From NCBI GenBank assembly GCA_951406725.2, contig OX597826.1, positions 53,134,001 through 53,198,000 of the forward strand: a DNA stretch of 64,000 nt, written 5' to 3'. A program made the translations under genes and the position numbers. Under the pieces are notes generated by a model, which saw nothing but the letters and a program-made list of their open reading frames with translations, was not told where the DNA came from and did no database searches. Positions 1,508-52,280 of this stretch are shown piece after piece. How positions within the stretch are numbered: the stretch's first letter is position 1; each line of letters opens with the position of its first letter. The DNA comes from Octopus vulgaris. Its lineage: Eukaryota.

Positions 1508-1603
1508 CAAATCATTAGATTCACGTCAACATTTAAATCTAATTTGCCAAAATATTTTCTTCGCTTTCAGACCGCGACCTGATCATTGACAAATTCCATG
1601 CTG
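1508..1603 (-). mobile_element. Penelope-like terminal repeat fragment with degenerate hammerhead motif
   Basis: Same family as 56253-56488; minus strand reads tttgtca-ATGATCA-ggtcgc..gcgaa-GAAA-atattt-tggcaaa. Confidence 0.5.
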
Positions 1604-1739
1604 TATATATATATATATATATATATATATGTGTGTGTGTGTGTGTGTGTGTGTGTGTGTGTGTGTGTGTGTGTGTGTGTGTGTTTGTATGTATGTATGT
1701 ATGTATGTATGTATATGTATATATATGTGCATACACATA

Positions 1740-2056
1740 TATCGTTTTTTTTAGAAAAACATAAAAACGGAGAAGAAGCACACTCTAAGTAGTAGAGCAG
1801 TTTATTTTTATTACTGGTGAAGGCCGACGGGTGGCGTAGCTGATAGAGGACGACATAACCGGAAGCCGATGACCAGTCGATGACCACCAAAAGTGGGAGA
1901 TAACCCCCCTTGCTTATATCTAGTTCGTTTCCCCCTCCATACTTTAAAGAGGCCATCGGCCAGCAAGTCTTACGGTCTGATGATATGCCACGAGATACTC
2001 TTTATGGCGCGAAACCCAGGGTAACCATATAAAGAGGGCTTCACCAGTAATAAATA
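1740..2056 (+). mobile_element. Non-coding Penelope-like element with inverted terminal copy and hammerhead
   Basis: Perfect 16-bp inverted repeat 1807-1822 / 2039-2054, AATAAA at 3' end, hammerhead core inside, flanked by microsatellites. Confidence 0.6.
1972..2028 (+). ncRNA. Type I hammerhead ribozyme
   Basis: ggt-CTGATGA-tatgcca..tggcgc-GAAA-CCCAGGG-TA-acc; all three helices can be drawn; predicted cleavage after A2023. Confidence 0.75.
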
Positions 2057-2370
2057 TGTTTGTGTGTGTGTTGTATGTGTGTGTGTGTGTTTATGTGTGT
2101 GTGTGTGTGTGTGTGTGTGTGTGTGTGTGTGTGTGTGTGTGTGTGTGTGTTGTGTGTGTGTGTGTGTGTGTGTGTGTGTGTGTGTGTGTGTGTATGTGTG
2201 TTGTGTGTGTGTTTGTGTGTGTGTGTATGTGTGTTGTGTGTGTGTATGTGTGTGTGTTTGTGTGTGTGTGTATGTGTGTGTATGTGTGTGTGTATTTGTG
2301 TGTGTGTGTGTGTGTGTGTATGTGTGTGTGTGTGTGTGTGTGTGTGTGTGTGTGTGTGTGTGTGTGTATG
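2057..2370. repeat. (TG)n microsatellite
   Basis: Direct reading. Confidence 0.95.
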
Positions 2371-2714
2371 CATACATTGGACCTGCTAAAAGTATGTAAC
2401 AATTGTTGATATATGTGACTTCGTTTAAAACTAGACAGCTGGCAGAATCGTTAGAACGCTGAACAGAATGCTTAGCCGCATGTCTTCCGACATTACATTC
2501 TAAAATCAAATTCCATTGAAGTGAATTTTGCTATTCATTTAGAGACGATAAAATTAGTACCAGTTGAGTCCTGAGGTCAATTTAATTGACTAGCTACCTA
2601 CTCCCCAAATTCTAAAGAATATACCGTCATTTCAAAAATGACAAAATGTCAACTCCTAACGAAGTAGGAAACCCAACTGCGTTCTATCACTACTGTATAA
2701 GTAAACATTATAAT

Positions 2715-3050
2715 CCGGGATCCGGGACCCCCTTCGGTCACGACACTGACCATGGGATTGCACCTAGAAAGTTACCCTCCTAGTCACAAGTCTGGGCATG
2801 GTTGTTTATGGAAGACCAGCAGTCGCCCATGCATACCGGCCTCCCCTCTCCACGCCACCAGTGTTATCCAAGGGAAAGGCAAAGGCCGATACAGCTTGGC
2901 ACCAGTGACGTCGCAACTCATTTCTACAGCTGAGTGAACTGGAGCAACGTGAAATAAAGTGTCTTGCTCAAGGACACAACACGCAGCCCGGTCCGGGATT
3001 CGAGCTCACAACCTCACGATCGTAAGCTCGACGCTCTAACCACTGATCCA
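2715..3050 (-). mobile_element. tRNA-derived CORE-like SINE, family C
   Basis: Minus strand has tRNA head then gtgtccttgagcaagacactttatttcacgttgctccag; homologous to 55425-55790. Confidence 0.8.
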
Positions 3051-3511
3051 ATCACATAACATTATTAAATAAACAATTATTATTTTTCAACGAGGTAATT
3101 TTATTTTCTCAACTCAAAACCACTTAAGTTAAATTCAGCTTTAAAGAAAAACAGCAGATATTTATTTTGGTGGGTTGTTGTTTGCAGTGGAGCGATAACA
3201 ATGGGTTGGGCTTTACGTGTCCTCTGTACATTCAATTCGCAATTATAACCGATAAGACTGCGTAGAAAGGAAAATATCAGACAAAATAAACCCACCAAAT
3301 AGCAGTTGTACATAGGACACACAAGAAAAGTCATTCGGAGGAAGAGGTTGAGGTAGAACCTAACTCTATTTTTGTCTGAAAAATTAACATAATGTAAATT
3401 AAACTAAAACTTGTTTTGTTGTTTCTCTGGAGGGTCATTAGGCCAATAATGAACACAAGTAGTGGTTCTGTTTCACTTCTTTTATCATTATTATTATTAG
3501 TCATCTAAAAG

Positions 3512-48554: not shown

Positions 48555-49005
48555 ACATGAGAGATGTGGTAGAATGGAGTCGAGACAATAGTGTTGTGAT
48601 AATAAGGAATTGAGACAGCAGAGATGTGATAGTGTGGAGTTTTGATAGTCGGAAATTCTAATAGAAAAGTCATGACCAGCGGAACTATTCGAGAATACTT
48701 GTGGTAAGAAGGAATATTGACAATAAAACAATCAGATTGTAAGAGTGACGTGAAGGTGTATTGACAGTAGAACCCTGCCACAGTAAAAATATGACAGGAG
48801 AGAGTTTTTACAGTAGAGAGTTGTGATACTAGAGATGTGACAATAGACGTATGAAAGTAAAGATGTGACAATAGAAGCCGGATAGTTGAGATGAAAAACA
48901 GAAGAGAGTTGTGGAAATAGAACGTTGTGATAGAAAACAGTTGTGCCAGTGAAGGTGTGATGAAAGAGAGTTGTGATTCTTAAGGTGTGACGATAGTTGT
49001 AACAA
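48555..49005. repeat. Degenerate 15-16-bp minisatellite (approx. gagttgtgatagta)
   Basis: Roughly 28 diverged units read by eye. Confidence 0.7.
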
Positions 49006-49156
49006 AACTCGAACTCACAATGTTATGATTTTATTTCAGGTACCTTATCCATTAGACCACGATGTCATTTCCCGCAACATTATTAACCTAAATTTTCACT
49101 TCTATCACTGTATTCTCTCTTTCTGGAAAATAGTGCCCTCTATATACGATAGAAAG

Positions 49157-49386
49157 ACGGCGAGCTGGCAGACACGTTAGCGCGCCGGGTGAAATGCTTA
49201 GCGGTATTTTGTCTGTCGTTACGTTCTAAGTTCAAATTCCGCCGAGGTCAACTTTGCCTTTCATCCTTTCGGGGTCGATAAATAAAGTACCAGTTTCGCA
49301 CTGGGGTCGATATAATCGACTCAATCCCTTCGTCTGTCCTTGTTTGTCCCCTCTATGTTTAGCCCCTTGTGAGCAGTAAAGAAATA
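49157..49386 (+). mobile_element. Family A SINE, full length
   Basis: Head through tail ..gcagtaaagaaata. Confidence 0.85.
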
Positions 49387-50344
49387 TATATACGATAGAA
49401 ATAGTCTAAATAGATAATAAACTAAGAGTTTAGGTTTGATAATGTCCAGTTTCAAAATAAAATTCAAAGGATCTGTAATTGTTTGTATGTTGATTGATAT
49501 GTGTGTGGGAGTATTGTAAATTAAATCAATGAATGAATGGCTGACGTTCAGATGTGACGAAGCGAGAAAGTATAGCGTTGCTGCTATTTCCTGAAACCGT
49601 CTGTTTGCACATGTTTTGCCGTCTAAACAATGACAGGCGATACCGTAACTTACAATACATGCTATTAGCGAGGCAAAACTATCTAGCTTATATTGCGAGT
49701 CATTGGTGTTTGTTAGCAAACACTTTATATGTGTTTTGTTTTTAAAGTTGCAGTGCCAAGACTGCTCTGTCCAGTACACTGACCCAGTTTCGGTCTTCGG
49801 CGAGGACAGCGGCCAGTTAATCATCTGATTAATTCAAACAGCTATTGTCTGAACGCTTAGTAATTGCTCATTCTTTATTTCATTCTGTCTCTCTAAAAAG
49901 CTTTACTGTATAATCAAGCGTATTTCTCTAAGGCTCCGATTTCTGTCAAACTGTATTTGCTAAAAGTCTCTCTCTCTCTCTCTCTCTCTCTCTCTCTCTC
50001 TCTCTCTCTCTCTCTCTCTCTCCCTCTCTCTTCAGGCTGAGTTACACAACGTTTTATGCGACAGCGTAGCCTGTTCCGTATTCGCTCTACTCACGTACGC
50101 ACGAACAGAGACACAGCCAAACACACCCAAACATATGAGACATTGCTACACCTGATATACAAAAATGATAGCGTCGAAACGCGGAGTAGATAAAACAGGG
50201 GACAACTGATGAAGAGATTGTTCTTTATGTTGCCTGTCTCGTCTCTCTATTTGTTTCTTTCGTTGTTCGAAAAAGTGTTCGTTTTCCATGTTTTTGTTTT
50301 TTTCATGTTCAGGGTTTTTTTTTTGTCGTCTTGTACCCATATAT

Positions 50345-50783
50345 GCATGTGTATATACATATATATGTAGGCATATACATATATGTATTATATATGCATA
50401 TATATATATATATATATATATATATATATATATATGTATGTATATATATATATGTATATATATATATATATATGTATATATATATATATGTATGTATATA
50501 TATATATATGTATGTATATATATATATATGTATGTATATATATATATATGTATGTATATATATATATATGTATGTATATATATATATATATATGTATGTA
50601 TATATATATATATATATATGTATGTATATATATATATATATATATGTATGTATATATATATATATATATGTATGTATGTATATATATATATATATATATA
50701 TATATATATATATATATATGTATGTATATATATATATATATAATATATATATATATATGTATGTATATATATATATATGTATG
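50345..50783. repeat. (TA)n/(TATG) microsatellite
   Basis: Direct reading. Confidence 0.95.
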
Positions 50784-52280
50784 AATTCAAAACAAAGAAA
50801 ACCAGTTTCCTTTATAGGGCTGGAAAAACATCCGATTTTCCACTGGTTTTTCAATAAATACCTAATATGGCAGAGAAAAACTTTTCAGAACCCTAAAGGG
50901 TATATATTCAATATGCAAAAATTAAAAGAAAATGGAGATTTATAATTGACATATTATAAATATAATTTATTAGGATAATATTATACTACAATAAATATAA
51001 TATCATGTAATATGAATCTAAATACAAATATTAATCTAATAAAGAATTTATAAAAAATTATTTATAGATATGGATCTCATCAGAGAGATATTTCACAAAA
51101 TTGGACAAAATTACATGAGATTCAACCTATAAATATGAATTTTTAATAAATTCATTGTTGGGTATGAATCGAAACAATATATATATATATATATATATAT
51201 ATATATATATATATATATGTATATATACATATGTGTATGTTCATATACATATATGTACATATATACATATGTACATATATACATATGTACACATATTAAT
51301 ATATACATACATAAACACACATATGTATGTATGTGTGTGTGTGTATATATATATATGTATGCATGTATATAATATATGTTTGTGTGTGTGTGTGTATAAA
51401 TACACTTTAAATTTGTTTCTGTGAAACGTTTTGAATATGCAAATAAAGCGCCTATTCCATTGTGTTGGCCACCGTCTAACGATGTTGACTTGCGAGACAG
51501 TTTTTCGGGCTTGCATCAAGTTGTAGTGATATAATGTAAGATAAATACAAGAATTGAAACAGAATTGTATACACTGAAATGGATATCTGCATTTATATAT
51601 AACTAATTCAACTCATTCCATTACACACAGCCACATATTGTAAACATGGATACATATAGATACATCTAGTTCACACATAGACTTTTATACACATAAACAC
51701 GAGTACAGACACACACACACACACACACACACACAACTTCACACAACTTAAATATTCAATTTGCTACAGACAGAAACATGCGCTCACTACACAGATTTAA
51801 TGCAAGTGTACTTTTACTAATCTCCGCATACATATAGAGACAGACATACACTTGCATACACGCATCACATATACGTACACACTCACACACACATGCACAC
51901 ACACACACTTGTACTTGGTGCCTTACCAAGTTTCCGAGACGTTGGCGTTGTTTCATTCTGCGAATTTAGAATAGCTTGACATCTTTCACTTCTAGGGTCT
52001 TTTGCCAAAAAGTAAACAAATGAAATAAATAAATATACAAACGAATGAATAAATAAACATATATATATATATATATATATATATATATATATACATATAC
52101 TAAAAAAATAAAAAAGTACTAGTACACCACATTTGTGAGGAAACTCTTTGTTGAATTGTTATATTTGGAAATGGTTATTTTTTTCGCCAGTAAGCACACG
52201 CGCTATTTATTTGATCTTCACTTTAGATTTGTTGTTGTTGTTATTATTATTATTATTATTATTATTATTATTATTATTAT

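Follow-up and report, generated by a model that had tools for sequence, protein, structure and literature searches.

A predicted hammerhead ribozyme in S-G-C block order in a non-coding tandem retroelement and in Naiad elements of Octopus vulgaris

Analysis of a 64,000-nucleotide stretch of the Octopus vulgaris genome (assembly GCA_951406725.2, contig OX597826.1, positions 53,134,001 to 53,198,000 of the forward strand; hereafter the window, whose own numbering is used) revealed the decayed 3′ ends of at least nine families of Penelope-type retroelements, eight with a type I hammerhead motif and one in which the conserved blocks follow the order S-G-C. The type I part is ordinary and already described. 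The surprising part is a non-circularly permuted hammerhead at 50174-50229, assigned from its letters to the type SGC of Eckert et al. (2023, PMC10085705). It opens a truncated copy of a non-coding tandem element at 50174-50401, hereafter the SGC element. We regard it as probable that this hammerhead cuts the RNA of the element and that the reverse transcriptase (RT) of a Penelope-like element (PLE), probably of the Naiad kind, copies it back into (TA)n tracts. The fold and its genomic context can be followed from copy to copy; self-cleavage and the identity of the mobilising RT are inferred. The features of this family in the window are:

50174..50401, plus strand: 5′-truncated copy of the non-coding tandem element, subfamily a (unit of ~740 nt), ending in a (TA)n tract.
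50174..50229, plus strand: part of the SGC hammerhead of subfamily a, with block G (GAAA at 50176) and block C (CUGAUGA at 50206), block S missing.
43098..43173, minus strand: 3′ fragment of the SGC element family (E 2e-5), without the ribozyme.

An earlier note on this DNA, made from its letters, had recorded half-cores near 50175-50213 and 51076. Both positions are correct, with GAAA and CUGAUGA at the first and CUGAUGA on the minus strand at the second, and the first pair turned out to be blocks G and C of one hammerhead in S-G-C order, non-circularly permuted, whose block S is absent because the copy begins 13 nt downstream of the predicted cut. Genome comparisons covered 2.8 Gb in 227 contigs, with similarity searches scored on the best 40 places per query, and densities were derived from a sample of 50 ten-kb stretches at fixed round coordinates (500 kb in all). 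In longer relatives of the window copy, the motif opens at its 5′ side with one strand of helix III and GUC, followed by one strand of helix I and, after a linker of 3-4 nt, by one strand of helix II and GAAA. Next comes the second strand of helix III, separated by 13-16 nt from the second strand of helix I, behind which stand CUGANGA, a single extra base and the second strand of helix II. The predicted cut and GAAA are 13-15 nt apart, and GAAA and CUGA 27-30 nt. Three subfamilies were distinguished, namely a (that of the window), b (copies 94-99% identical) and c, plus one variant copy at locus L432.

The 3′ untranslated region (UTR) of the Naiad PLEs in this genome also holds an SGC motif, with stems unrelated to those of a, b and c. 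Comparison of the four lineages revealed two-sided changes at 8 of the 11 positions of helices I and III. In the order a/b/c/Naiad, the commonest pairs in helix I are UA/UA/UG/CG at position 1, UA/CG/CG/UA at position 2, UA/CG/CG/CG at position 4, CG/UA/CG/CG at position 5 and CG/unpaired/UA/CG at position 6; those in helix III are GC/GC/AU/CG at position 3, CG/UA/CG/AU at position 4 and GC/AU/GC/UA at position 5. Among 20 aligned copies of b and c, 97.1% of 280 cells pair, against 41-61% in slid controls, and two-sided changes affect 4 of the 14 pairs; the relatedness of the copies inflates the shuffle test on this alignment. Subfamily a was left out of this count because the aligner shifted its core by one column.

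The core is constant apart from the free position N7, which is U in a and Naiad and A in b and c. In subfamily b, CTGAAGA is present in 71 of 72 rows, GAAA in 71 of 72 and GTC in all 72 (overlapping loci unmerged). An intact core with helices was found in 3 of 31 distinct copies with block S in a, 44 of 48 in b and 10 of 24 in c, figures that are not genome rates since the samples were picked by similarity. A descriptor of the SGC motif gave no hit in four shuffles of 500 kb (2 Mb). The 500-kb sample contains three copies of the family, which scales to ~17,000 in the genome (Poisson limits 3,500-49,000, calculated by hand).

Type SGC has been known only from metatranscriptomes and type CSG from two metagenome sequences, with one weak GCS case in the genome of a known organism (PMC10085705). 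The published SGC and CSG hammerheads (HRIMA-1) resemble the SGC element in block order (S-G-C), in helices I-III arranged as pseudoknots, in a size of ~60-80 nt and in a possible I-II stem, and the validated SGC ribozymes further share the short I-II linker and the single extra base after A9 (PMC10085705). Unlike them, the SGC element resides in an animal nuclear genome as a high-copy retroelement, and its helix II is weaker. The search patterns of that study required CUGAUGAG or CUGAUGAUG, which subfamilies a, b and c do not match. The literature searched, with subscription papers and bioRxiv supplements mostly outside it, gave no account of an SGC or CSG motif from a retroelement or an animal genome; a 2026 paper mentions hammerhead permutations, in the part available, only in passing (PMC13725137). 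A non-circularly permuted RNA fold known from one study, without a known host, can thus be placed in a host and a genetic context, with thousands of copies, and descriptors for types I, II and III overlook this class of predicted animal ribozymes.

Animal non-LTR (long terminal repeat) retrozymes, as described in the accessible parts of PMC7229834 and bioRxiv 10.64898/2026.07.22.740005, likewise consist of non-coding units arranged head to tail, each with a single hammerhead, and they share with the SGC element a low GC content (36-39%) and a proposed mobilisation by PLEs. They differ in carrying a type I hammerhead in units of ~220-390 nt arranged in long arrays, whereas the SGC element has S-G-C order and dispersed units of 740-900 nt. 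Elements a, b and c are therefore retrozyme-like and fall outside the retrozyme definition, which includes a type I hammerhead.

The units of the three subfamilies are 738, 800 and 898-910 nt long and lie head to tail, with one hammerhead in each; dispersed copies span 0.3-2 units, at 36-39% GC. Their 3′ ends use one main site and a second ~40 nt further. In b, 29 of 34 ends fall within 1 nt of one site; in c, relative to a splice-donor-like motif, 18 of 34 fall at −24 to −27 and 5 of 34 at +7 to +20. Copies are flanked by (TA)n, and 5′ inversions were observed at loci L133, L137, L140, L147 and L171. Partial tandems, 5′ inversions, (TA)n or microsatellite targets and short tails are PLE hallmarks according to the available parts of PMC8557442 and PMC11167929. 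The SGC element carries this signature of PLE mobilisation, with partial tandems, 5′ inversion, a 30-40-bp tail and a microsatellite target.

Some further features of the units were noted. A splice-donor-like site lies just beyond the 3′ end (L195:1020-1030; L236), and a pyrimidine tract followed by CAG, often CGG in a and c, lies ~30 nt upstream of the cut (L195:1585-1595; 40 copies of b), so that a unit may comprise a single exon and a single intron. Four copies of a (L152, L160, L172, L177) have a common upstream fragment, which we take to be a Helitron-like helicase; these were therefore probably carried together rather than inserted independently. Fourteen sequencing runs guessed to be of RNA contain a fifth to a quarter of the words of the SGC unit, and four runs with four organism labels cover it as contigs, which give neither ends nor strand; these runs were not used as evidence.

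The elements a, b and c might instead be terminal repeats of an unsampled autonomous PLE bearing an open reading frame (ORF), and not self-standing non-coding units, an explanation that we hold unlikely and that would leave the assignment of the hammerhead unaffected. Two type I families of the window, at 1977 and 43553, did turn out to be such PLE ends, the splice-donor-like and acceptor-like sites of the units recall PLE introns, and the searches scored only the best 40 places. Against it, copies that extend past one unit enter the next unit and not an ORF (L161, L195, L197, L207, L210, L236), the longest frames starting with methionine reach 70 aa in b and 106 aa in c, and PLE-like tblastn matches near copies of a, b and c are separated from them by microsatellite or other DNA.

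Under the non-coding, self-cutting reading, transcripts of the element would fold into the doubly pseudoknotted core and be cut after GUC (GUA in Naiad). Since many copies pass the site and are longer than one unit, cutting would be incomplete, and an uncut multimer or a religated circle may serve as template. A PLE RT, probably of the Naiad kind, would return the element into (TA)n tracts, and an RT reaching the cut 5′ end would leave copies whose first letter lies 1-14 nt past the cut; that of the window copy lies at +13.

To locate 5′ ends relative to the predicted cut, copies were mapped against a long natural copy after retrieval with queries lying downstream of the cut, which began at the G block for c and at the C block for b and a. 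Ends at +1 to +14 were compared with ends at −14 to 0, giving 8 versus 3 in a (39 copies), 5 versus 0 in b (29 copies) and 10 versus 0 in c (29 copies), or 23 versus 3 in the 97 copies pooled (p 2e-5). RT stalling at the helices would be expected to end copies at +24 or beyond, because the partner strands are already copied by +14. We take the excess just behind the predicted cut as an indirect footprint of cutting. Such a pile-up of 5′ ends offers a genomic route to test in-vivo cutting by PLE hammerheads, and the young, near-identical copies of subfamily b make a cleavage assay easy.

Naiads were reported to be without canonical hammerheads, eight of them being flagged 'HHR_half_core' (Craig et al. 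2021, PMC8557442, in the part available). A 21-nt motif of the published octopus Naiad consensus has 200 exact matches in the present genome. At the 24 of 30 loci with the C block in register, helix I pairs in 20-24 and helix III in 19-22 copies, CTGATGA is kept in 21 and GTA in 17. An RT with YIDD lies upstream of the motif on the same strand at L418, L437, L438 and L440; the elements are identified as Naiad by their match to the published consensus. Their 3′ end matches that of the published octopus consensus, and (TA)n targeting with tandem and inverted insertions is common to the copies studied here and the Naiads described in the accessible part of PMC8557442. Two Naiad copies 602 bp apart (L406, L407) each follow a (TA)n run and have their first nucleotide precisely at the predicted cut. 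The Naiad 3′ terminus (L401, L402) and the tails of a and c have a common 9-nt motif near their ends, absent from b, which might serve as a common start signal for RT or be coincidental.

Reading by eye covered 23 of the 54 published Naiad tails (17 of them in the last 600 nt only), with names taken from the record order, which matched the table where checked. Eight of the 23, from octopus, nematodes and a spider, have a complete SGC or CSG motif. The two octopus tails are SGC, and six are complete CSG (Naiad_Parc, Naiad-2_Nbra, Naiad-3_Nbra, Naiad_Hcon, Naiad_Hpol and Naiad_Smim), with a helix I of 5-6 bp, a helix II of 4-5 bp and a helix III of 6-10 bp; five of these six have an evident I-II stem of at least 9 bp. 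In three other tails (Naiad_Esco, Naiad-3_Chem and Naiad-2_Movir) the helix II strand finds no partner in the letters that follow CUGANGA, and 3_Chem has a fitting strand upstream of block S. In the remaining twelve, a complete motif was not seen or was ambiguous. Among the eight flagged half-core Naiads, five have a complete motif (octopus SGC and four CSG), one a partial motif and 3_Dst none in 600 nt, while 4_Dst lies outside the tails read. No CSG motif was found in the loci examined of the octopus genome. SGC, GCS and CSG are circular permutations of each other, so a tandem or circular transcript could convert one into another. Hammerheads of types SGC and CSG in these tails would explain the reported lack of canonical ones, and we consider such permuted block orders the likely explanation of the missing Naiad hammerhead, a direct answer to the published puzzle of hammerhead-less, half-core Naiads.

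Several observations weigh against a self-cutting element served by a Naiad-type RT. First, helix II of a, b and c has 3-4 bp, two of them G-U, and pairs in 90-100% of copies with one-sided changes only; that of the octopus Naiad consists of two pairs, a mismatch and one pair, and Naiad_Esco, Naiad-3_Chem and Naiad-2_Movir, in S-G-C order with helices I and III, lack a local helix II. Secondly, the 3′ strand of helix II pairs better with the core G8-A9, in a competing 5-6-bp pairing conserved in a, b and c (−7.6 versus −2.6 kcal/mol in c and −3.4 kcal/mol in b), which would block catalysis. Each lineage allows a possible stem between the free sides of helices I and II (−2.0 to −4.4 kcal/mol), in differing registers, and single-strand folding gave other structures, pseudoknots being outside such models. 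Thirdly, the 5′-end excess is limited by the general 3′ bias of copies; in subfamily a, for which the least biased sample was used, it is weaker (p 0.09 alone) and seven more ends fall at +15 to +45, many ends in b and c fall on one TA (at +8) able to anneal to the (TA)n target, and the Naiad copies have 0 of 29 ends at +1 to +14 and 2 of 29 at the site itself. Lastly, no autonomous partner with the sequence of a, b or c was found among the loci examined, and the Naiad 3′ UTR has no similarity to a, b or c outside the motif, only microsatellite and a 17-nt core matching. In the available part of PMC11167929, the hammerhead of an Anolis PLE needed protein for cutting, insertion in vitro did not depend on it, and no reads terminated at its site.

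The competing pairing, the one-sided helix II, the three tails lacking it, the Anolis case and the many long copies (most of them) that run through the site are also what commends a second explanation, in which the S-G-C fold is real and conserved without being self-cutting: it would stand mostly in the inactive register, in a protein-binding or switch role, and cut with a PLE protein or never. We judge this improbable, because all catalytic core letters and the NUH triplet are kept in four lineages, the 5′ ends step at the predicted cut and six published CSG tails have a strong helix II of 4-5 bp.

Far less probable is the reading of the earlier note, that every site is a type I hammerhead of a non-autonomous self-cleaving retro-RNA. 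Type I order indeed applies to eight families, and those of 1543, 12635 and 34494 are short with no ORF link seen; the motif at 50174-50229 has the order S-G-C, two families (1977 and 43553) form the ends of coding PLEs, for which "non-autonomous" fails, and most window copies have broken helices or cores, so that the reading is refuted as a general statement. That S-G-C arose by chance from rearranged or tandem type I motifs, without selection for a fold, as the frequent inverted and tandem PLE copies and the palindromic CGCG of subfamily a (which could serve a type I dimer) might suggest, is less probable still and is largely refuted by the covariation, since the helix III strands of c and Naiad are non-palindromic and change together, so that a type I dimer cannot explain the motif, and since tandem type I units yield circular orders only and the shuffles gave no SGC hit.

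The remaining motifs were assessed at the level of the genome. The window has 38% GC and abounds in microsatellites and short repeats. All core coordinates listed in the earlier note are correct (1977, 12635, 30272, 34494 and 40430 on the plus strand; 43553-43608 and 1543-1593 on the minus strand). Its proposed comparison with dinucleotide shuffles went against the bare motif: nine CTGANGA-N4-40-GAAA pairs were counted in the window versus 4.8 ± 2.2 in 100 local shuffles, 7 of which reached nine, so the count is not above chance. A descriptor requiring helices was passed by one window site (1977) and by none in 30 shuffles, a single pass explained by the decay of the window copies. An Rfam scan gave no hammerhead among the matches listed (150 of 158), the miRNA matches being driven by microsatellites. 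The window alone is thus insufficient proof, and the case holds through the genome families. Each site has at least 40 matching places in the genome, and the commonest letters of the family copies (6-30 per family) pair in helices I and II; a minimal type I descriptor accepts 12 sites in the 500-kb sample, whereas six shuffles gave 0, 1, 1, 0, 0 and 1. All nine sites are real, each from a multicopy family.

The high density proposed earlier (~1 per 9 kb) is borne out at ~1 per 6-7 kb in the window, decayed copies counted, and at 1 per 42 kb in the genome sample for descriptor-passing motifs; the presence of many unrelated hammerhead-bearing PLE-type families likewise stands, with at least nine in the window. 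By similarity, the 500-kb sample holds eight copies of the 34494 family, five of the 1543 family and four of the 12635 family. It also contains five other unrelated type I families (L312, L326, L328, L332, L351). Simple-pattern sites at 18362, 29291, 53366 and 53682 were dropped for want of supporting helices, the last two lying inside a RT fragment of LINE (long interspersed nuclear element) type.

Eight of the nine families carry minimal PLE hammerheads of the known type I kind, in block order C-G-S, with helices I and II and a short palindromic helix III according to family pair counts, most window copies being individually broken. Their features are:

1760..2055, plus strand: 3′ end of a coding PLE (1977 site), with PLE end 1823-2055, 5′-inverted piece 1760-1825 and type I motif 1973-2026.
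43390..44045, minus strand: 3′ end of a coding PLE (43553 site), with PLE end 43390-43900, 5′-inverted piece 43909-44045 and type I motif 43553-43608 with U4C.
12474..12751, plus strand: element with tRNA-like head, (AAT)n and type I motif 12630-12675 with a decayed palindromic loop.
30251..30446, plus strand: old family (30272 site), type I motif 30267-30312, helix II pairing lost in the window copy.
28563..28757, minus strand: second, decayed copy of the 30272 family, absent from the list of the earlier note.
34407..34627, plus strand: young 220-bp element (34494 site), type I motif 34490-34524, one mismatch in helix I.
40366..40610, plus strand: old family (40430 site), type I motif 40426-40464, helix I unpaired in the window copy.
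50895..51178, minus strand: element with a long-helix-II type I motif; on the minus strand only the C block remains (51069-51085), and an inverted piece, 51115-51178 (plus), holds helix II and GAAA.
1501..1602, minus strand: short element (1543 site), motif 1543-1593 a decayed type I minimal hammerhead; the family has a G3-C8 core pair, a 7-bp helix I and a 5-bp helix II.
56252..56485, unstranded: second copy of the 1543 family, an inverted pair, C block absent.

The CUGAUGA at 51076, also called a half-core, is thus a type I motif whose G and S blocks were deleted. Helix I pairs at all five positions in 24 of 24 copies of the 12635 family; pairing is found in 18-19 of 19 copies of the 34494 family and in 22-24 of 24 of the 43553 family, and the old families pair in 7-17 of 18 copies (30272) and 12-15 of 17 (40430). 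Several of the eight have an extra base after A9. Minimal type I motifs, mostly single, in truncated PLEs are widespread among animals according to the part of Cervera and de la Pena (2014, PMC4209133) available, and the PLE pseudo-LTR hammerheads described there are alike in type I order, palindromic helix III and many truncated singles. No essential difference was noted, although the 1543 family swaps a core pair to G3-C8 and the core swap in that source is U3-A8. A family with a U3-A8 core was seen here as well (L325, L347, L355), with three copies in the 500-kb sample.

Longer copies of the 1977 family (L052, L066, L055) continue on the same strand into a GIY-YIG-type frame, and a longer copy of the 43553 family (L012) into a PLE RT, which is inverted in L016; both window copies are therefore 5′-truncated ends of coding PLEs, and both have the 5′-inverted piece typical of PLEs. 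For the other six type I families, the 6-30 loci inspected per family, with flanks of 1.5 kb, gave no link to an ORF. No PLE ORF had been noticed in the window, in agreement with a tblastn search using one 778-aa PLE query (best E 1.6). Intact young PLE frames occur elsewhere in the genome, of 778 aa (L301:2787-5120, plus strand) and 753 aa (L431, L432), both with a C-terminal GIY-YIG. The former has, by eye, a U4C type I motif with a 56-nt insert in helix II, and Pfam gave no match for it; no hammerhead motif was found in two copies of the latter.

The motif at 1543-1593 had been called degenerate. This is true of the window copy, in which position 3 is A and the first pair of helix II is disrupted, and not of the family, whose fold is complete with the swapped G3-C8 core pair: GTGAACA is the core in 26 of 30 copies and the 3-8 pair forms in 29 of 30. 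We also rejected the alternative of a miniature inverted-repeat transposable element (MITE) end without ribozyme, as family copies hold the complete fold. The family (L371-L400) is ~230 bp long, with five copies per 500 kb, frequent 5′ inversion and G8 in some copies. In the parts of PMC11167929 and PMC8495972 available, an engineered G3-C8 double change restores hammerhead activity in part. No natural G3-C8 core was found in the literature searched, outside which lies the list of natural core variants of Lunse et al. (2017).

In the 12635 family (L027-L050) a tRNA-like head is followed by (AAT)n and by a tail containing a hammerhead, and inversions occur at the 5′ end of the head. The family resembles a tRNA-headed short interspersed nuclear element (SINE) moved by a PLE; ARAGORN found no tRNA in the window, and the tRNA-like label of 12474-12751 was given by eye. 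The 30272 copy adjoins a 300-bp inverted/direct repeat structure (29724-30032 / 30189-30497). High-copy SINE-like repeat families (D15, D16, D20) in the window lack a hammerhead pattern. Other coding remnants lie at 53018-53893, 38076-38435, 16411-16788, 24501-24836 and 25220-25522. The window fragments include a broken LINE-type RT (PF00078, E 7e-6), two that we take to be C-terminal retroelement nuclease-like and one presumably mariner-like, these three labels having no Pfam support, and a C2H2 pair.

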